Both the position numbers and the translations under genes were made by a program. Source: a virus (taxonomy: Duplodnaviria > Heunggongvirae > Uroviricota > Caudoviricetes). Taken from it: a stretch of DNA of 15,248 nt. This document shows positions 1 to 13,901 of the stretch, piece by piece (the first letter of the stretch is position 1; each line of letters starts with the position of its first letter). The DNA lies in IMG/VR virus record IMGVR_UViG_2675903575_000011, one strand, 5' to 3'. The notes under the pieces are model-generated. The model ran no database searches and had not been told where the DNA came from. It worked only from the letters and a program-made list of their open reading frames with translations.

Positions 1-1059
1 TTAAATGCGCTGGTCATTTGATATAGGTAAAATGCTTGTAAAGAGTTTTTCGTCATATAGTGCGTACTCAGGTATGTAATCACCATTGCTTTTACCTGTT
101 TGGAAGATAGAGGGGTCCTTGTCGATTAAAACATATAACTCAATGAGAATATTTCTTAGTCCCCAAAGCATTTGCTTTAGTTGTTTTTCATCATTGAATG
201 AGATGCTTATGGCTTCCGTATCTGGTTTTGGATGTTCAAGAATTATTGAGAAAAGATGTTCTTGGTATTTATAATCAATTCCAAGTAGTCTGCAAAGTTG
301 AATTATGTTTGATTCTATGAGTTGTAGGCTAACTAATTGGTCGTCATGATTTTTGTTGTTGGACTTAAGCGATTTGTTTATGTTGTTATAATGATTTGTT
401 GTTTTTCGAATAAAATCTTCTTCGACAACGGTGCTATAGCCATTATCAATGGAAGATGATTTGAAAATATTTTTATAAAGAGTGTACGGATGAACTACAG
501 ATAGTTCAATACTGTCTATATCACTAGTTTCTTTATTTAATCTTGATAATTTAAATGTTGGTAGTGTTTGGAATATATCAGCGAAGCTTTTCAGATGTGA
601 GTAATATGAATCAGTGGTATTTTTTTCAATAACAAGATTGATTTGCTTTTGTGTTTTTTCTATTTGGTTCTCTGTTTGTGTGGTTCTATGTATATTGTTG
701 ACGATTGCTGCAAGAGGTACCGAAGAAGCTAAAATAAATAATGGCAATTTAGAAATGTCAAGAAAGTGATTAAAACCGTCTGATGTGAAATTTAAATCGT
801 GGCCTTTCCAAGCCCAGAGGCCATACAAAACAAACATTTTTAACGGTACGATAATAGATGCTATGAATAATGGTTGTTTTAATAGATTTTTCTCATTTAG
901 TTTAAGCCAATTGAAGCAATAGAACATAAGTATCAATCCAAGTATATAAGCTACACTAAAGAAGATAAAAACTCTTGGACGATTAGTGTATATCAATGCT
1001 AAGGCAATTAAGATAGTAATGATTGCGTAGGTAATGATTAATGTGAGCTTTTTTTTCAT
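1..1059 (-). CDS. AT-rich membrane protein of unknown function (about 352 aa; 4 predicted N-terminal TM helices plus about 230-aa soluble C-terminal domain)
   Basis: Complete ORF on the minus strand (stop TAA at 1..3). Preferred start is ATG at 1057..1059 (MKKKLTLIITYAI...), 4 nt after the int stop, rather than the upstream in-frame ATG at 1101 that would overlap int. Hydrophobic stretches LTLIITYAIITILIALALIY, VFIFFSVAYILGLILMFYCF, LFIASIIVPLKMFVLYGLWAW, LPLFILASSVPLAAIV. Composition is markedly more AT-rich than the phage core by eye. Confidence 0.5.
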   Translation of the reverse strand: MKKKLTLIITYAIITILIALALIYTNRPRVFIFFSVAYILGLILMFYCFNWLKLNEKNLLKQPLFIASIIVPLKMFVLYGLWAWKGHDLNFTSDGFNHFLDISKLPLFILASSVPLAAIVNNIHRTTQTENQIEKTQKQINLVIEKNTTDSYYSHLKSFADIFQTLPTFKLSRLNKETSDIDSIELSVVHPYTLYKNIFKSSSIDNGYSTVVEEDFIRKTTNHYNNINKSLKSNNKNHDDQLVSLQLIESNIIQLCRLLGIDYKYQEHLFSIILEHPKPDTEAISISFNDEKQLKQMLWGLRNILIELYVLIDKDPSIFQTGKSNGDYIPEYALYDEKLFTSILPISNDQRI

Positions 1060-1063
1060 TCTA

Positions 1064-2080
1064 TTAAACCAAATTATGTAAAGGATTTTTTGTAACAGCA
1101 TCTTCTAGATGGTCTGGAGAAAAGTGTGCGTAAACCATCGTCATTTTTATATCGGCATGGCCCAATATTTCTTTAAGGACAAGAATATTCCCGCCATTCA
1201 TCATAAAATGACTGGCGAATGTATGACGCAGCACGTGGGTGCATTGGCCCTCTGGTAGCTCGATGCCTGCTCGCTTTACTGCTCGTTCAAAGGCTTTTCT
1301 GCACGGTGTGAATAGTTTCCCTCTGTTCTTGGGGAGTTCATCATACAGATTTTGAGATATCGGCACGGTACGATTTTTCTTACCTTTTGTCTTGGTATAG
1401 GTGATCCGGTATTTTGATAACTGATGGCCCTGCAAGTTTTCTGCTTCACTCCATCGCGCACCAGTAGCCAGGCATATTTTTGCAATCATTAGTAGGCTGG
1501 TGTTTTGAGATTCGGCGCAGGCATTAAGCAGGCGTTTGATTTCGTCCGTGGAAAGAAAAGCCAATTCACCTTCAGCAATTTTGAAGGTTGGAAGCCCTGC
1601 CAGCGGGTTTGGTGCGGACCAGTGCCCTAGTTTTTTCAATGTACCGAACACCGATGACAGGTTACGCTGCTCAAGATTAACTGTGCGAGGTTTAACGGGT
1701 GACATGAACGAGCCGTCTTCATTTTGGACCTCCCCCTTTAATCTGGCTTCCCGATATTTTGTGAAATCACCTGCTGTCAGCTCAGAGGCGATGGGATCGC
1801 CTAGACCATTACAGATAATTCTAAGTTTCGCCATCAGGCGTTTGGGGTCTGCGAGTGTTTGACCATATAGGGAATACCACTGCTCAATCACTTCTGATAA
1901 TCGCCGCCGATCTTCCTTCTCACCAAGCCATGGCTTTTTGTTTACTTCGTCCATGGTGAAGCTTTCAAATGCAATGGCTTCGCCTTTGGTAGCAAATTGC
2001 TTACGCACGCGCTTACCATTGCGTCCATTGGGATAGCACTCACACAACCATTTTCCGTTCGGCTGTTTTCTGATGGTCAT
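1064..2080 (-). CDS. int: Tyrosine-type site-specific integrase (P2/186 Int family)
   Basis: 338-aa ORF with a C-terminal catalytic region typical of tyrosine recombinases (…HVLRHTFASHFMMNGGNILVLKEILGHADIKMTMVYAHF…: the R, H-x-x-R and Y residues). Lies directly downstream of the repressor gene on the same strand, as in 186 (cI-int operon). Confidence 0.9.
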   Translation of the reverse strand: MTIRKQPNGKWLCECYPNGRNGKRVRKQFATKGEAIAFESFTMDEVNKKPWLGEKEDRRRLSEVIEQWYSLYGQTLADPKRLMAKLRIICNGLGDPIASELTAGDFTKYREARLKGEVQNEDGSFMSPVKPRTVNLEQRNLSSVFGTLKKLGHWSAPNPLAGLPTFKIAEGELAFLSTDEIKRLLNACAESQNTSLLMIAKICLATGARWSEAENLQGHQLSKYRITYTKTKGKKNRTVPISQNLYDELPKNRGKLFTPCRKAFERAVKRAGIELPEGQCTHVLRHTFASHFMMNGGNILVLKEILGHADIKMTMVYAHFSPDHLEDAVTKNPLHNLV

Positions 2081-2083
2081 AAG

Positions 2084-2722
2084 TTAGAGGTTCTTGATTA
2101 CTTTGACTGCACGTCCTACGACTTCCACATCATCTACAGAACATTCAAATGAAGTGTCATCTTGGTTAACTACTATTTTGTTTCCGGGTATGCGCGCAAT
2201 TTTGACGATGCTTTTAACTCCGTCCATATCGACTAACCAGAAGCCATTACTGACTTGTTTAACGGACGTATCCACTACAAAGCTATTATTAGCTGTTTTA
2301 ACAAATAAAGCGTTGGATGAGTCACCATCGAGCAGGCTGCTATCAAGAAGAATTTCATCACTTGCCTGCAGTTCGCCGTTCTTCAGTTCAACACGTTTGA
2401 TGCTAGGAGCAACGATCTTAGAAAGTGGTCTTACAGTGACGGGAGGTTCATTTTTGAGATTTGTTTCTTCGTTCTCACACGCATACATATCTCCTTGACC
2501 AGTAGCCAGCCATAGAAGGGAAGCTCCTGTTTCAAGGGCACATTGAATTACCCATTCGGCAGGAAAGCTATCCCTTAAGTATCTGTTAGCCATAGTGCTT
2601 TTGGATACCTCCAGATGTTCGCAGAGCTGCTGTCGTGAGCTGAAGTTGTAAGCCTTAATAAGCCTGTTAATTGCATCGCGCCCACCACTATCATTTCCCG
2701 CCTTGATCAAACTCATAATCAA
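2084..2722 (-). CDS. cI: Phage immunity repressor CI (186-type: N-terminal HTH, C-terminal LexA/S24-like beta-barrel)
   Basis: 212-aa ORF divergent from the apl-cII lytic operon. N-terminal HTH-like segment (SSRQQLCEHLEVSKSTMANRYLRD; CALETGASLLWLATGQG). C-terminal segment NGFWLVDMDGVKSIVKIARIPGNKIVV resembles the LexA C-terminal domain as recalled from memory. Confidence 0.8.
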   Translation of the reverse strand: MIMSLIKAGNDSGGRDAINRLIKAYNFSSRQQLCEHLEVSKSTMANRYLRDSFPAEWVIQCALETGASLLWLATGQGDMYACENEETNLKNEPPVTVRPLSKIVAPSIKRVELKNGELQASDEILLDSSLLDGDSSNALFVKTANNSFVVDTSVKQVSNGFWLVDMDGVKSIVKIARIPGNKIVVNQDDTSFECSVDDVEVVGRAVKVIKNL

Positions 2723-2727
2723 ACCCC

Positions 2728-2756
2728 TTGACGTATATAAAAAGTGATCCTAATAT
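2728..2756 (+). promoter_or_regulatory. Near-consensus sigma70 promoter (TTGACG-17 bp-TAATAT) facing the apl-cII operon; pR-like lytic promoter
   Basis: TTGACG at 2728..2733, 17-nt spacer, TAATAT at 2751..2756, about 75 bp upstream of the apl start; position equivalent to pR of 186. Confidence 0.5.
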
Positions 2757-2832: not shown

Positions 2833-3075
2833 ATGAGTACTGATATTTCAATTCGTGTACCAAAAGAGATGGCTACGCCTGCAGAGTTCGCGGAATGGGA
2901 AGGTATCTCCCGCGGCTCCGTGTATCAAAAAATTCACCATGGTCAGCTTGCTAAATACATGGTCAAGAAAGAAAAAAACAAAGGCCGCGTAAGCCTGCGT
3001 TATTTAATGTACAAAACCGATCAGGTCCGTGAATCCCTCGGTCATTCCAACTTCCGCGTCATTGTTGGTAAGTAA
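2833..3075 (+). CDS. apl: Apl/Cox-like small DNA-binding protein (excisionase and lytic-switch regulator)
   Basis: 80-aa basic ORF that is the first gene of the rightward operon, between cI and cII, exactly where 186 apl and P2 cox lie. RBS aagaga precedes ATG at 2833. Confidence 0.65.
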   Translation: MSTDISIRVPKEMATPAEFAEWEGISRGSVYQKIHHGQLAKYMVKKEKNKGRVSLRYLMYKTDQVRESLGHSNFRVIVGK

Positions 3076-3107: not shown

Positions 3108-3617
3108 ATGTTTGATTATAAGATTTCCAAACACCCGCATTTTGATGAAGCCTGTAGAGCTTTTGCACTTCGTCACAATATGGCGAAGCTGGCAGAACGT
3201 GCAGGAATGAATGTCCAGACTCTGCGAAACAAACTCAACCCAGATCAACCGCATCAGCTCAATGCGCCAGAAATCTGGCTGCTTACCGATCTGACTGAAG
3301 ATTCAACGCTGATAGATGGTTTTCTGGCACAGATTCACTGCCTGCCATGTGTACCGATTAATGAGGTAGCAAAAGAGAAACTGCCGCATTACGTCATGAG
3401 TGCAACCGCAGAGATCGGGCGTGTTGCTGCAGGTGCGGTATCTGGCAATGTAAAAACCAGTGCAGGTCGTCGTGATGCTATCAGCAGCATTAACTCTGTA
3501 ACACGACTGATGGCGCTGGCTGCTGTTTCATTGCAGGCCCGTTTACAGGCTAACCCGGCGATGGCGAGTGCAGTTGATACCATGACTGGCCTTGGTGCTT
3601 CATTCGGTTTGCTGTGA
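3108..3617 (+). CDS. cII: CII-like transcriptional activator of lysogeny establishment (186 CII family)
   Basis: 169-aa ORF, the same length as 186 CII, with an HTH-like N-terminal region (ACRAFALRHNMAKLAERAGMNVQTLRNKL). Strong RBS (aagggggt) before ATG at 3108; position after apl. Confidence 0.75.
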   Translation: MFDYKISKHPHFDEACRAFALRHNMAKLAERAGMNVQTLRNKLNPDQPHQLNAPEIWLLTDLTEDSTLIDGFLAQIHCLPCVPINEVAKEKLPHYVMSATAEIGRVAAGAVSGNVKTSAGRRDAISSINSVTRLMALAAVSLQARLQANPAMASAVDTMTGLGASFGLL

Positions 3618-3624
3618 GGTGCTT

Positions 3625-3825
3625 ATGCTTACGAAAGAACCATCATTTGCATCGCTGCTGGTTAAACAAAGCCCGGCAATGCACTACGGTCACGGCTGGA
3701 TCATGGGTGAGGATGGTAAACGCTGGCATCCGTGCCGTTCACAAGATGAATTGCTGGCAGAACTATCTACGAAAAAACGGGGGAACAAATGGCTATTGAA
3801 GGCGCTGCGGCGACTGTTCCATTAA
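3625..3825 (+). CDS. Small early-operon protein of unknown function (66 aa), at the position of 186 fil/dhr-type genes
   Basis: ORF with GAGG upstream of ATG at 3625. The alternative overlapping frame 3614..3799 has off-frame-like composition (C/W/R-rich). Start codon is uncertain. Confidence 0.4.
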   Translation: MLTKEPSFASLLVKQSPAMHYGHGWIMGEDGKRWHPCRSQDELLAELSTKKRGNKWLLKALRRLFH

Positions 3826-4957: not shown

Positions 4958-5811
4958 GCACCATCCTGAAATGGGCGGGTAATAAAACTACCATTATGTC
5001 CGAACTGAAAAAACATCTTCCTGCTGGCCCGCGACTGGTTGAACCTTTCGCGGGTTCCTGTGCTGTGATGATGGAGACGGATTACCCCAGCTATCTTGTT
5101 GCGGATATTAATCCTGATTTAATCAACCTCTATAAAAAGGTTGCTGCTGATTGTGAATCGTTTATATCTCGCGCCAGAGTTTTATTTGAGATCGCAAACA
5201 GGGAGGTGGCTTATTACAACATAAGGCAGGAGTTTAATTACTCAACTGAAATTACTGATTTCATGAAAGCGGTATATTTCCTGTATCTCAATCGTCACGG
5301 TTACCGTGGTTTATGTCGCTATAACAAGAGCGGGCATTTCAACATTCCCTACGGTAATTATAAAAATCCGTATTTCCCTGAAAAAGAAATTCGCGCATTT
5401 GCAGAAAAGGCCCAGCGAGCAACGTTTATCTGCGCCAGCTTTGATGAAACGCTGGCGATGTTGAAGGCGGGGGATGTGGTGTATTGCGATCCGCCGTATG
5501 ACGGTACGTTTTCCGGCTATCACACTGATGGTTTCACTGAAGATGACCAGTATCACCTGGCATCCGTTCTTGAACATCGGTCATCAGAAGGACATCCGGT
5601 CATTGTTTCTAACAGTGACACATCCCTGATCCGTTCGCTGTATCGCAATTTTACTCACCACTACATCAAGGCAAAACGCAGCATCGGCGTAGCAGCTGGT
5701 GAGAGTAAATCTGCAACAGAAATCATCGCTGTTTCTGGGGCACGCTGCTGGGTGGGATTTGATTCTTCGCGTGGCGTGGATAGTTCTGCCGTGTACGGAG
5801 TGCGTGCATGA
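4954..5811 (+). CDS. dam: DNA adenine methyltransferase (Dam-like, D12-class N6-adenine MTase)
   Basis: Motif I region ([11 protein letters not shown]) and catalytic DPPY motif ([11 protein letters not shown]); N-terminus LKWAGNK typical of Dam. Start ATG 4954 overlaps the upstream stop (ATGA). Confidence 0.9.
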
Positions 5812-8228
5812 GCCATGCTGATATGAACAACTGCAGCGGCTTTAACGAGGCCGCCGCAGCATTCTCATGGAACAGCCCGAAAAAGGCTATTAACCCTTAT
5901 CTGGACCCGGCGGAAGTTGCGCCGGTTTCTGCGCTTTCAAACCTGATCACTCTGTACGCTGCCGATAACGAGCAGGAACAACTGCGCCGCGAGGCACTGA
6001 GTGATCAGGTCTGGGAGCGTTATTTCTTTAATGAATCCCGTGATCCTGTCCAGCGCGAAATGGAGCAGGATAAGCTTATTAGCCGGGCAAAGCTGGCGCA
6101 TGAGCAGCAGCGTTTTAATCCGGACATGGTCATACTGGCGGACGTTAACGCCCAGCCTTCCCATATCAGCAAGCCGCTGATGCAACGTATTGAATACTTC
6201 AGCAGCCTGGGCAGGCCAAAGGCTTATTCCCGCTATTTGCGTGAGACGATTAAGCCATGTCTGGAACGACTGGAGCATGTACGCGACAGTCAGCTATCCA
6301 CTTCTTTTCGCTTTATGGCAAGCCATGAAGGGCTGGACGGCCTGCTGATCTTGCCTGAAATGAGTCAGGATCAGGTGAAACGCCTGTCTACTCTTGTCGC
6401 TGCGCATATGAGTATGTGTCTTGATGCCGCTTGTGGTGATTTGTACGCCACCGATGATGTTAAGCCAGAAGAAATCCGCAAGACATGGGAAAAGGTGGCA
6501 GCAGAAACCCTGCGACTGGATGTCATACCGCCTGCGTTTGAGCAACTCCGCCGGAAAAGAAACCGCCGTAAACCCGTGCCCTATGAACTCATTCCGGGTT
6601 CGCTGGCGCGTATGTTGTGCGCCGATTGGTGGTACCGGAAATTATGGAAGATGCGTTGCGAATGGCGGGAAGAGCAGTTGCGTGCTGTTTGCCTGGTCAG
6701 CAAAAAAGCATCTCCCTATGTCAGCTATGAAGCCGTGATGCATAAACGTGAGCAGCGCCGTAAGTCGCTGGAGTTTTTCCGTTCTCATGAACTGGTGAAC
6801 GAAGACGGCGACACGCTGGACATGGAGGATGTGGTAAACGCCAGCAGCAGCAACCCTGCGCATCGCCGCAATGAGATGATGGCCTGTGTTAAAGGTCTGG
6901 AGCTTATCGCGGAAATGCGCGGTGACTGCGCCGTTTTCTACACCATCACCTGTCCGTCACGTTTCCATTCCACGCTAAATAACGGCAGGCCCAACCCGAC
7001 CTGGACAAATGCGACGGTAAGACAAAGCAGTGATTATCTGGTCGGCATGTTTGCTGCATTTCGTAAGGCGATGCACAAAGCCGGGTTGCGCTGGTATGGC
7101 GTGCGGGTGGCTGAGCCGCATCATGACGGCACAGTTCACTGGCACCTGTTGTGTTTCATGCGCAAAAAAGACCGCCGCGCCATTACTGCATTGTTGCGTA
7201 AGTTTGCTATCCGTGAAGACCGCGAGGAGCTGGGTAATAACACGGGGCCACGCTTTAAGTCTGAGCTGATAAACCCGCGCAAAGGAACGCCGACTAGCTA
7301 CATCGCGAAATACATCAGTAAGAACATTGACGGGCGTGGTCTGGCTGGCGAGATCAGCAAGGAAACGGGTAAATCTCTGCGTGATAACGCTGAATACGTT
7401 AATGCCTGGGCGTCTCTGCATCGTGTTCAGCAATTCCGCTTCTTTGGCATTCCGGGGCGTCAGGCTTACCGTGAACTGCGATTGCTGGCTGGTCAGGCGG
7501 CAAGGCAACAGGGTGACAAAAAAGCAGGTGCGCCGGTACTGGATAACCAGCGCCTTGATGCCATTCTGGCTGCAGCTGATGCTGGTTGTTTTGCCACCTA
7601 CATCATGAAGCAGGGCGGCGTACTGGTTCCCCGTAAATATCACCTCATCAGAACCGCTTATGAAATCAACGAAGAGCCGACCGCCTATGGCGATCACGGC
7701 ATTCGTATTTATGGCATCTGGTCACCCATTGCAGAGGGCAAAATCTGCACTCATGCAGTGAAGTGGAAAATGGTTCGTAAGGCCGTTGACGTTCAGGAGG
7801 CGGCAGCCGACCAGGGCGCTTGCGCCCCTTGGACTCGGACTCGTGGCAATAACTGTCCCCTTGCTGAAAATTTGAACCAACAAGGGAAAGACAAATCAGC
7901 TTATGGGGATACCAGAACGGACATTACCCGCATGGATGACAAGGAGTTGCACGATTACCTGCACAGTATGAGCAAAAAAGAGCGCCGGGAACTGGCTGCA
8001 AGGTTACGCCTGGTGAAACCGAAACGGCGTAAAGACTACAAACAGCGAATTACAGACCATCAGCGACAGCAGCTCGTCTATGAGCTGAAGTCCAGAGGAT
8101 TTGATGGCAGCGAGAAAGAGGTCGGTTTACTCCTTCGCGGCGGCAGTATTCCGTCAGGAGCAGGCCTGCGTATCTTCTATCGGAACCAGCGTTTGCAGGA
8201 AGATGATAAGTGGCGGGATCTGTATTAA
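5808..8228 (+). CDS. A: Rolling-circle replication initiation endonuclease (P2/186 gpA family)
   Basis: 806-aa ORF in the gpA position after the early genes. HUH-type motif ([10 protein letters not shown]) with downstream Tyr-containing region (YIAKYISKN). Start ATG 5808 overlaps the dam stop (ATGA). Confidence 0.9.
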
Positions 8229-8320: not shown

Positions 8321-8340
8321 TACTGTAAATATAAACAGTG
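8321..8340. promoter_or_regulatory. LexA operator (SOS box) TACTGTAAATATAAACAGTG
   Basis: Matches CTGT-N8-ACAG with an AT-rich spacer, close to the TACTGTATATATATACAGTA consensus. Overlaps a candidate promoter (TTTACA at 8298..8303; TATACT at 8319..8324) 40 bp upstream of ORF 8381. Confidence 0.7.
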
Positions 8341-8380
8341 GTTATGTATACAGTATTGCTTTGGTGTCATAGGAGGAAAG

Positions 8381-8569
8381 ATGCAGGACTATTTTTTGGA
8401 GTCTTTGAAGCTCCAGCGCATTGATTTTTTTCTTAAGCTTGTAGCGGCTAGTGAGTGTAGTGATGAAGAGAAGGGGCTGGCCCTGCAGTGGGTTTCTGAA
8501 CTAACAGATGAACTCATGGCAAAAATCAGAACCCACGAATACAACCGCTCAATGGATGTCATCAGCTGA
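8381..8569 (+). CDS. Small SOS-controlled protein (62 aa); candidate Tum-like antirepressor
   Basis: RBS aggagga at 8371..8377, ATG at 8381; first gene downstream of the LexA box, in the position of the 186 tum operon. Function is inferred from context only. Confidence 0.4.
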   Translation: MQDYFLESLKLQRIDFFLKLVAASECSDEEKGLALQWVSELTDELMAKIRTHEYNRSMDVIS

Positions 8570-8579
8570 GGTGACTTTT

Positions 8580-8813
8580 ATGCGCATTGAAATAATGATC
8601 GATAAAGAGCAGAAGATTAGCCAGTCTACCCTGGACGCTCTGGAGTCCGAGCTTTACCGCAACCTGCGCCCCCTGTATCCCAAAACGGTAATTCGTATCC
8701 GCAAAGGTAGCTCTAACGGTGTGGAACTTACCGGACTGCAACTGGACGAAGAAAGAAAACAAGTGATGAAAATTATGCAGAAAGTGTGGGAAGACGACAG
8801 CTGGCTGCATTAA
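8580..8813 (+). CDS. dinI: DinI-family protein
   Basis: 77-aa ORF, MRIEIMIDK...LDALESEL...WEDDSWLH, closely parallels E. coli DinI as recalled (MRIEVTIAK...IDALAGEL...WESADDWF). RBS gaggtg at 8567..8572. Confidence 0.8.
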   Translation: MRIEIMIDKEQKISQSTLDALESELYRNLRPLYPKTVIRIRKGSSNGVELTGLQLDEERKQVMKIMQKVWEDDSWLH

Positions 8814-9137: not shown

Positions 9138-10811
9138 ATGGAAAAATATCAAGATGAGGAATATGTAGATGATTTAACTGAGCGTGTTTTTCTCATTAAG
9201 CAACAACTGGAAGCGGGAAAACTAAAAATAGCTCATCATCTTGTAGAAGGTTTTATTGAAAGTTTTAAAAGAATAAGGCTGCGACAGGATGGTAAAGTTG
9301 ACCCTTCTACTGTTGATGGCAGAATAAGGGCTATGGGAGCAGCGGTTAATCACTTTTTAGAAAGAGAAGATATAAAAAACAAATACTCTATTCAGGACTT
9401 GCAAAGTTCTTACTTTAATATTCTTTTTAGTAATTTTGGCGAGTTGTTTTATCTGATGAAAAAAACTAATGCAACGCCACATAAAGCATCAAGTTTTTTT
9501 TCTCAACAAGAAGAATATGTTAAGCAAATAGAAGATATTTTTCCTGAGTTATATAATCAGGTAATAGAGTTTTGGCAGGTAACATCCGATATTGGTGTAA
9601 TACATTTGCAGGATGGTTCTCAGTTTAAAGCTAATTTTTCTGGTGACTTATTTCCTGCATTTGATGAGAATGCTGTCTCTATTGCAGGGTTGTATGTTGA
9701 TACTATTTCACTTCCATGTCCTATATTAAGAGTCGGTCGTCTCTATGAAAAGTCAGATAAGGCTGAGTTTACAAGGATACTTCTGAAGCATGTCCTAACA
9801 TGTATGACATATAAAGAAGTAGCGCTTGAAGATATAGAGCCAGCAATAGTATTAATTTTGCCGGATAGAAGAGATTTTGAAACTGAGAGCAAAAAAAATT
9901 TGATGAGTTTTTGTGAGCCTTATGCTCTGACTCATGCGCAATATCTCTATGATCGACGGTTCGAAAGCTACGATGAATTTCGAGATTTTAGTTATTCGAT
10001 GAATGATATTGATGCTGTTCTTAAAAATATTAAGAGAGCAGATAGACTTATTTTTGATACAGCATGGGGGCTAAATCCAAAAACTCAATTAGAAAAACTA
10101 CTATCTGATAAAAAAAGAATATCACGTAATGTTGTTGGTGATCATGCTGGAATGGAGGTTTTCCTTTCCTGCATTGGAAGAATGCCGCAAGCCTATTCAG
10201 CAAAATGTAATGCACAAGAACTTGGTAGTACTCCATATATAAATGCAGACACATCTTGGCTCTATTATACTTGGCTTATTGAGTACGAATCTCTTAATTT
10301 TGATGTCAATGATATTGAACTAAAAAATTTGCATATGGTTCATGCGTTATCTGCTGGTATGCAAGATGGTTTTTCATGGTTAGGAAATGTACCGGTCAAT
10401 AAAATAATTGAGTTGAGACGTAACAAATTGATGGAGGATGTAAGATCCATCTTATCAAATGGTGTTGACTCTTTAATCAATTCTTCGGCAGAGAGCTTTT
10501 CGAGGACAACGCAAAAAGTAATTGATAATGTAGACCGGGCTTTTATTGAACATCAAAGGATTCTTGCAAAAGCCCAAAAAGAGAAATTGAGAATTTACGG
10601 ACTAGATGTCCTACCATGTATCGCAAATGGTGCTATAGCAATTGCTGGAGCGCTGACTGGCAATACTACTTTAACGGCGTTAAGTGCAGGCCTTGGAGTA
10701 ATAGGTATTCCGAGTATTAGTGATATCAAATCTAAATTTAAGCAGAGGCAAGAGAAGCTTGATGCCTATCAACGTTCTGTTACAGGTATACTCTTTAGCC
10801 ATAAATCTTAA
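9138..10811 (+). CDS. Orphan AT-rich 557-aa protein, unknown function; candidate phage-borne defence/exclusion protein (soluble N-terminal region plus C-terminal glycine-rich hydrophobic hairpin)
   Basis: Long uninterrupted ORF with RBS (ggag at 9129..9132) 5 nt before ATG 9138. Composition visibly AT-rich versus flanking phage genes. No Walker A or other motif I can recognise. C-terminal ANGAIAIAGALTG...LSAGLGVIGIPSI is hydrophobic and glycine-zipper-like. Convergent with the portal gene and ended by a hairpin. Confidence 0.7.
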   Translation: MEKYQDEEYVDDLTERVFLIKQQLEAGKLKIAHHLVEGFIESFKRIRLRQDGKVDPSTVDGRIRAMGAAVNHFLEREDIKNKYSIQDLQSSYFNILFSNFGELFYLMKKTNATPHKASSFFSQQEEYVKQIEDIFPELYNQVIEFWQVTSDIGVIHLQDGSQFKANFSGDLFPAFDENAVSIAGLYVDTISLPCPILRVGRLYEKSDKAEFTRILLKHVLTCMTYKEVALEDIEPAIVLILPDRRDFETESKKNLMSFCEPYALTHAQYLYDRRFESYDEFRDFSYSMNDIDAVLKNIKRADRLIFDTAWGLNPKTQLEKLLSDKKRISRNVVGDHAGMEVFLSCIGRMPQAYSAKCNAQELGSTPYINADTSWLYYTWLIEYESLNFDVNDIELKNLHMVHALSAGMQDGFSWLGNVPVNKIIELRRNKLMEDVRSILSNGVDSLINSSAESFSRTTQKVIDNVDRAFIEHQRILAKAQKEKLRIYGLDVLPCIANGAIAIAGALTGNTTLTALSAGLGVIGIPSISDIKSKFKQRQEKLDAYQRSVTGILFSHKS

Positions 10812-13385: not shown

Positions 13386-13901
13386 NNNNNNNNNNNNNNN
13401 NNNNNNNNNNNNNNNNNNNNNNNNNNNNNNNNNNNNNNNNNNNNNNNNNNNNNNNNNNNNNNNNNNNNNNNNNNNNNNNNNNNNNNNNNNNNNNNNNNNN
13501 NNNNNNNNNNNNNNNNNNNNNNNNNNNNNNNNNNNNNNNNNNNNNNNNNNNNNNNNNNNNNNNNNNNNNNNNNNNNNNNNNNNNNNNNNNNNNNNNNNNN
13601 NNNNNNNNNNNNNNNNNNNNNNNNNNNNNNNNNNNNNNNNNNNNNNNNNNNNNNNNNNNNNNNNNNNNNNNNNNNNNNNNNNNNNNNNNNNNNNNNNNNN
13701 NNNNNNNNNNNNNNNNNNNNNNNNNNNNNNNNNNNNNNNNNNNNNNNNNNNNNNNNNNNNNNNNNNNNNNNNNNNNNNNNNNNNNNNNNNNNNNNNNNNN
13801 NNNNNNNNNNNNNNNNNNNNNNNNNNNNNNNNNNNNNNNNNNNNNNNNNNNNNNNNNNNNNNNNNNNNNNNNNNNNNNNNNNNNNNNNNNNNNNNNNNNN
13901 N
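13386..13901. other. Assembly gap (516 N)
   Basis: Uninterrupted run of n; length is consistent with the X counts in the ORF track. Confidence 1.

Follow-up and report, generated by a model that had tools for sequence, protein, structure and literature searches.

The viral sequence IMGVR_UViG_2675903575_000011 (15,248 nucleotides; hereafter the window, meaning the whole stretch of DNA that was analysed) represents the early region of a P2-like prophage of the Fels-2/186 kind. Its cI immunity repressor gene lies on the minus strand at 2084..2716, encodes 210 amino acids followed by a stop codon and matches both PF07022 and PF16452. The minus-strand open reading frame (ORF) that contains it spans 2084-2722. 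This ORF is real, and all the peptide stretches quoted from it in an original prediction, made from the DNA letters alone, were found in its translation. The TTG at 2722 that serves as the start in a mechanical ORF list adds two residues and is probably unused. ATG 2716 is the likely start, because it yields a product of 210 residues, the length shared by Fels-2 CI and by 90 of the 120 nearest homologues in the database.

CI consists of an N-terminal helix-turn-helix (HTH) DNA-binding domain (residues 14-78; 2483..2677, minus strand; PF07022, Phage_CI_repr, E 8e-33), a linker (residues 79-104; 2405..2482, minus strand) and a C-terminal domain (CTD; residues 105-210; 2087..2404, minus strand), whose residues 105-204 match PF16452 (Phage_CI_C) with an E value of 5e-40. 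An AlphaFold2 (AF2) model of the protein, built with 38 homologues as input, has a mean predicted local distance difference test (pLDDT) score of 80, with 82-91 in the blocks of the CTD and less than 50 at linker residues 80-92; residues 12-72 are helical. The CTD has a LexA/S24 fold, is catalytically dead and is presumed to be an oligomerisation domain.

The protein is 92% identical to the CI of Salmonella phage Fels-2 (STM2738) across all 210 residues. The 17 substitutions fall mostly in the CTD, which is 89% identical, against 99% for the N-terminal domain (NTD). Identity to the CI of coliphage 186 is 30% overall, and the only sequence relatives with a solved structure are entries for 186 CI (2FJR, 2FKD and 7JVT). 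Those hallmarks of the phage 186/Fels-2-type CI repressors that sequence and model can show are present, namely the HTH, a Phage_CI_C domain with the fold of the 186 CI CTD, and the genomic context (cI and int leftward, a divergent apl-cII early operon and, after gene A, a LexA-controlled tum/dinI operon). The gene thus encodes the immunity repressor of a P2-like prophage in the 186 family, close to Fels-2.

The LexA-like C-terminal domain

The original prediction held, from an alignment made by eye, that the C-terminus of CI resembles the catalytic domain of LexA. This is borne out by fold comparison and by the profile alignment against S24 that it had proposed as a check. The CI model has the beta fold of LexA and the signal peptidases. 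In the fold comparison it scored 17.2 against the 186 CI CTD (2fkd), 12.1 against T. maritima LexA, 10.5 against the E. coli LexA CTD (1jhc; root-mean-square deviation 2.5 A over 97 residues), 9.9 against the lambda CI CTD, 9.6 against P. aeruginosa LexA, 8.9 against UmuD' and 4-5.5 against signal peptidases. Sequence identity to LexA in this comparison was 18% or less.

The profiles aligned with hhalign comprised 80 diverse Phage_CI_C domains (representatives at no more than 50% identity from a full HMMER scan, plus 186 CI) and 19 diverse S24 domains (LexA, UmuD and lambda CI together with IMG/VR phage loci). The diverse S24 set was drawn from IMG/VR loci because a wider homologue search with a LexA/UmuD/lambda-CI alignment gave only near-identical enterobacterial LexA and UmuD. 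The LexA and UmuD sequences used were identical to database proteins at 200 of 202 and 138 of 139 positions, with a match in the Protein Data Bank (PDB) as well. The two families align with a probability of 78% and an E value of 1.8e-5, pairing CI 142-209 with LexA 127-198; the similarity is detectable over the last six strands. The score of 31.9 is about nine standard deviations above the mean of 100 column-shuffled S24 profiles (mean 11.5, standard deviation 2.2, maximum 18.2), and a reversed-profile control scored 10.7. Single-sequence support is weak (BLASTP of CI against LexA, E 0.047), and the link to S24 appears only at the profile-profile and fold levels, not in HMMER-level searches of Pfam and PDB.

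The two domains can be matched strand by strand. The hhalign global and maximum accuracy (MAC) alignments and the DSSP strings of the AF2 models of CI and E. coli LexA all agree element by element. The CI helix at 126-128 corresponds to LexA PSLF 102-105, strand ALFVK 136-140 to FLLRV 111-115 and strand SFVVD 145-149 to LLAVH 130-134; the CI strands at 158-164, 167-176, 180-185, 188-193 and 198-207 follow as the counterparts of LexA 144-149, 152-161, 164-168, 177-180 and 186-197. The loop that joins the third and fourth strands is 15 residues long in LexA (115-129), where it carries G117-M118-S119 and a short helix at 121-123, whereas CI has four residues by DSSP, the tight turn T141-A-N-N144 (2285..2296, minus strand) between ALFVK and SFVVD. 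This turn replaces the roughly 11-residue LexA loop S116-M126 with its nucleophile S119; the nucleophile loop has therefore been deleted rather than merely mutated. No serine near the turn is conserved across the 80 diverse family members. In 186 CI the same loss has been tabulated, with LexA 114-RVSGMS-119 equated with 122-RSE---124 (PMC12984324, Table 1). The absence of a G-x-SM serine, which the original prediction had also noted, is thus established more strongly than was claimed, since the loop itself is gone.

The prediction's further statement that the catalytic lysine, K156 of LexA, is retained proved to be a register slip of one residue. Among the highest-confidence columns of the hhalign alignment, CI S169-I170-V171-K172 pairs with LexA T154-V155-K156-R157, and CI carries one inserted residue in its hairpin turn P177-G-N179. 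V171 (V171-K172, 2201..2206, minus strand) thus occupies the position of the base and K172 that of R157. In the models, the strands CI 167-176 and LexA 152-161 are both ten residues long, with one extra residue in the turn of CI; the hydrophobic and polar residues alternate alike in the CI and S24 families when V171 is set against K156. Crystal structures point the same way. They equate LexA 154-TVKR-157 with 186 CI 150-SIRE-153 and place R152 at the catalytic base's position (PMC12984324, Table 1 and sections 2.7 and 2.11), and 186 CI S150-I-R-E153 aligns pairwise with S169-I-V-K172 of the window CI, so that V171 again falls at the base position with K172 next to it. The alternative register, with K172 at K156, is the one obtained by ungapped BLASTP, by eye and with GNK as the anchor. 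It was rejected because three independent lines favour V171: the strand pattern, the strand lengths, and the hhalign columns together with PMC12984324.

Neither position is conserved in the family. Position 171 is R in 26, N in 21 and Y in 14 of the 80 domains (61 together) and K in nine; position 172 is D in 18 and E in 16 (34 together), K in 15 and E in 186 CI, and K172 is nearly invariant in the close Fels-2-like subgroup only. No lysine is conserved at the catalytic positions across the 80 diverse members. The false impression of a retained lysine arose because the by-eye alignment was anchored on DGD and GNK, whose agreement with E. coli LexA is due to chance. The GNK motif is peculiar to that protein and is no feature of the S24 family. 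The pairing of CI D130-G-D with LexA D127-G-D is one strand off, and D130, G131 and D132 are not conserved among CI proteins; the pairing of DGDSSNALFVKT with LexA is likewise displaced by a whole strand. That two of its three anchors were fortuitous is a caution on alignment by eye.

A cleavage site is missing as well. The linker contains no Ala-Gly or Cys-Gly dipeptide, and the sole such dipeptide in the whole protein is A6-G7, which lies before the HTH. The equivalent of the LexA cleavage site A84-G85 is tentatively the N113-G114 beta-turn (2375..2380, minus strand), which falls in a low-confidence part of the hhalign global alignment. G114 is kept in 75 of the 80 family members, preceded mostly by N, D or E, and this conserved turn glycine may correspond to the glycine of the cleavage site. 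The alignment thus places neither a Ser-Lys dyad nor an Ala-Gly or Cys-Gly site in CI. Tested against the S24 family, CI has the fold and lacks the serine nucleophile, the lysine general base, the Ala/Cys-Gly hinge site and the PF00717 profile match. Given an S24/LexA-fold CTD with neither a nucleophile nor a hinge site, autocleavage is not expected. Functionally, CI does not belong to peptidase family S24, and it works unlike the S24 autoproteases (LexA, UmuD and lambda CI; MEROPS S24, PF00717), with which it shares the beta fold and the order of the strands.

A dead LexA-like domain of this kind is already known, and nothing about it is new here. A 2026 structural paper describes 186 CI as LexA-endopeptidase-like, without nucleophile or base (PMC12984324). 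The window CI and 186 CI (2FJR, 2FKD) are alike in having lost both the serine loop and the lysine base, and differ in the linker, which is 18 residues shorter in 186, and in the residue at the base position (R152 in 186, V171 here). The gene should be annotated as encoding a CI repressor of the Fels-2/186 type whose LexA-like (Phage_CI_C) domain is inactive, and the result has little significance beyond that. The Joint Genome Institute (JGI) labels close homologues of CI (P0016, P0033 and P0041) 'phage repressor protein C with HTH and peptidase S24 domain', a label that implies a protease activity which the domain almost certainly lacks. The evolutionary theme is a known one: the fold of an S24 autoprotease is put to new use purely for oligomerisation, and a LexA-controlled antirepressor takes over the sensing of SOS. 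SipA of Streptococcus pyogenes, an inactive signal-peptidase homologue, is among the closest known systems; it differs in belonging to the type I signal-peptidase branch, in serving pilus polymerisation and in having no DNA-binding domain.

The LexA-boxed operon and indirect induction

A perfect LexA (SOS) box, TACTGTAAATATAAACAGT, lies at 8321..8339, after gene A and 42 bp upstream of an ORF of 62 amino acids; none of 200 shuffles contained such a box. The promoter and LexA-box region is nearly identical, base for base, to that of Fels-2, and the box has a position analogous to that of the p95 LexA site of 186. Right behind the perfect box, at 8339-8354, is a degenerate second box, GTGGTTATGTATACAG, its ACAG half intact and its CTGT half carrying two mismatches, which could be a tandem LexA site. 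The 62-residue ORF (ORF62; 8381..8569, plus strand; phrog_698) encodes a TumA-like, presumed antirepressor that is 98% identical to Fels-2 STM2728. It is followed by a DinI-like (TumB-like) gene (8580..8813, plus strand; PF06183, E 6.6e-23), whose product matches residues 71-145 of 186 Tum at 41% identity and its Fels-2 counterpart at 100%.

In Fels-2 and PSP3, tum is divided in two, with the antirepressor gene upstream and a homologue of dinI downstream (PMC3121763), and the operon in the window is this split arrangement. Fels-2 also has the same gene order, int-cI / apl-cII-fil...A-LexA box-tumA-dinI. Phage 186 shares the int-cI/apl-cII layout of the switch and a LexA-controlled tum, which in 186 goes with p95 and a LexA site (PMC7708051). 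Its Tum differs in being a single fusion protein of 146 amino acids, with an N-terminal half unrelated to ORF62. SOS induction of 186 proceeds through LexA-controlled Tum, which inactivates CI, and not through CI cleavage (PMC7708051, citing Lamont 1989 and Shearwin 1998).

We therefore consider it very likely that the window encodes a Fels-2-like CI in which an HTH is joined to a dead LexA/S24-derived CTD that acts as a scaffold for self-association, and that SOS induction is indirect, by way of the LexA-boxed antirepressor. The N-terminal HTH would bind the operators. The CTD would descend from the self-cleaving domain of LexA and its S24 relatives, with the serine loop deleted, a valine at the position of the lysine base and no Ala-Gly hinge, and would have been kept for self-association of CI. 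PMC3675496 reports that the CTD of 186 CI builds a 14-mer wheel of seven dimers, and by analogy the window CI may assemble in the same way; by the same analogy it would not cleave itself in vitro. Since CI cannot cleave itself, induction would have to be indirect. Cleavage of LexA would derepress the promoter at the box 8321-8339, the TumA-like antirepressor would then be made along with the DinI-like protein, and the antirepressor would block or inactivate CI. The LexA-boxed operon fits antirepressor-driven SOS induction as in 186, and CI would presumably differ from LexA, UmuD and lambda CI in being inactivated by an antirepressor and not by RecA-stimulated self-cleavage. The original prediction of a non-autocleaving S24-like domain, with induction through an antirepressor operon, accordingly stands as regards the missing serine, the missing hinge site and the LexA-boxed TumA-like/DinI-like operon, and falls as regards the retained lysine.

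Several points weigh against this interpretation. With only about 27% identity between the window CI and 186 CI in the CTD, formation of a 14-mer wheel is not assured. BLASTP of ORF62 against 186 Tum found no similarity, the N-terminal antirepressor half included, and homology to a characterised Tum therefore lends its proposed role no support; that role is deduced from its position and from a personal communication on PSP3 that PMC3121763 passes on. The residue mapping of the cleavage region (N113-G114) is of low confidence, and the AF2 model of LexA is poor at residues 71-100. Finally, the support for CI comes from comparison of sequences and models.

ORF62 is 100% identical in Klebsiella and Escherichia phages (loci L070, L071 and L072) whose CI is 35-58% identical to that of the window. 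In these phages the NTD of CI is 58-99% identical and the CTD 28-89%.

It is exceedingly improbable that CI is still a (slow) autoprotease with a non-canonical dyad, for example S169 and K172, and is cleaved directly in the SOS response. S169, which aligns with LexA T154, is fairly conserved in the family (55 of 80), and the near invariance of K172 within the Fels-2-like subgroup would suit such a dyad; however, the nucleophile loop is physically gone, position 172 is acidic in 34 of the 80 members and in 186 CI, the linker lacks a cleavable dipeptide, and 186 CI itself has no canonical active site (PMC12984324), its inactivation being due to Tum and not to cleavage (PMC7708051). The resemblance to LexA might instead be a chance or convergent likeness of small beta-barrel-like domains, with a CTD unrelated to the S24 peptidases. 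In keeping with this, Pfam Peptidase_S24 (PF00717) gave no match to CI even at E≤10 and is absent from the 25 Pfam families matched by most of the 80 CI relatives scanned at permissive thresholds, a PDB profile search with CI returned no LexA among its matches, and the identity to LexA is as low as given above. Against it, the hhalign score lies far above those of the column-shuffled and reversed controls, and we regard a chance likeness as very unlikely.

A dead protease could also be combined with a different route of induction, in which ORF62 is not the antirepressor of CI and some other factor takes its place, for instance Apl, the DinI-like protein or an antirepressor supplied in trans by another prophage. 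Salmonella prophages do have antirepressors that act in trans (PMC3121763), ORF62 shows no sequence relationship to the N-terminal half of 186 Tum, and the occurrence of an identical ORF62 beside such dissimilar CI proteins would be odd for a specific repressor-antirepressor pair. Yet ORF62, behind the LexA box and ahead of the dinI-like gene, is placed like the part of tum that provides the antirepressor in 186, Fels-2 and PSP3 (PMC3121763), and the 58-99% identity of the NTD among the phages that share it makes a conserved target plausible. Induction that bypasses ORF62 is unlikely, and the indirect route through the TumA-like antirepressor is preferred.

The NTD identities among the phages with an identical ORF62 suggest an antirepressor that is shared across immunity types and may target the HTH domain. 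The heteroimmune CI of Kp4846-2 is 57% identical to that of the window. Kp4871-2, a Klebsiella phage of Elveevirus (L071, OK490431.1), encodes on the minus strand a CI of 313 amino acids in which a tandem pair of Phage_CI_repr HTH domains (58% and 60% identity to the NTD of the window CI) precedes one Phage_CI_C domain, a double-HTH form also noted for 4LV2017; several family representatives of about 285-315 amino acids probably share this double-HTH architecture. A broader reading, which we find doubtful, is that one TumA-type antirepressor serves several heteroimmune CI proteins through the conserved N-terminal HTH and not through the divergent, dead LexA-like domain. If so, SOS induction of one P2-like prophage could cross-induce others, and the degenerate S24 domain would set the specificity of immunity and oligomerisation and would not be the sensor of induction.

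The switch region and flanking genes

The integrase gene (1064..2080, minus strand; PF24624 and PF00589) lies directly downstream of cI in the lysogenic operon. On the other side, a predicted pR-like early lytic promoter (2728..2756, plus strand; TTGACG-17-TAATAT, a consensus match only) abuts the cI start, in the position of pR in 186. Three copies of a direct repeat resembling AAACCAAAC lie between cI and apl, at 2709-2725, 2771-2787 and 2802-2816, and are reminiscent of phage 186, in which multiple binding sites for Apl lie between pR and pL. The rightward genes begin with an apl/cox-like excisionase-repressor gene (2833..3075, plus strand; phrog_6912 and phrog_575) and a cII (CP76) gene for the activator of lysogeny establishment (3108..3617, plus strand; PF06892, E 1.5e-43). 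They are followed by fil (3592-3825), a set of small ORFs with a Dam-like methylase gene, and the replicase A gene (5808-8228).

Further along, a run of N (masked bases) at about 13390-13900 breaks the region of the terminase large-subunit gene, giving translations with long runs of X and a G+C content of 0.17 in that bin. The module is flanked by two low-GC cargo ORFs, and in these flanking genes the window and Fels-2 differ. The first, an ORF of 557 amino acids between the DinI-like and portal genes (9138-10811, plus strand; 34-37% GC), has no Pfam or PHROG match and a weak PADLOC match to DitB (E 7e-10), and has the look of a gene for cargo or defence at a variable hotspot of P2-like phages. 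The second, an ORF of 366 amino acids with 32% GC (1-1101, minus strand), has no Pfam or PADLOC match; it lies just past int, starts at the edge of the window with hydrophobic segments predicted at its start, and may be another cargo gene at the end of the prophage.
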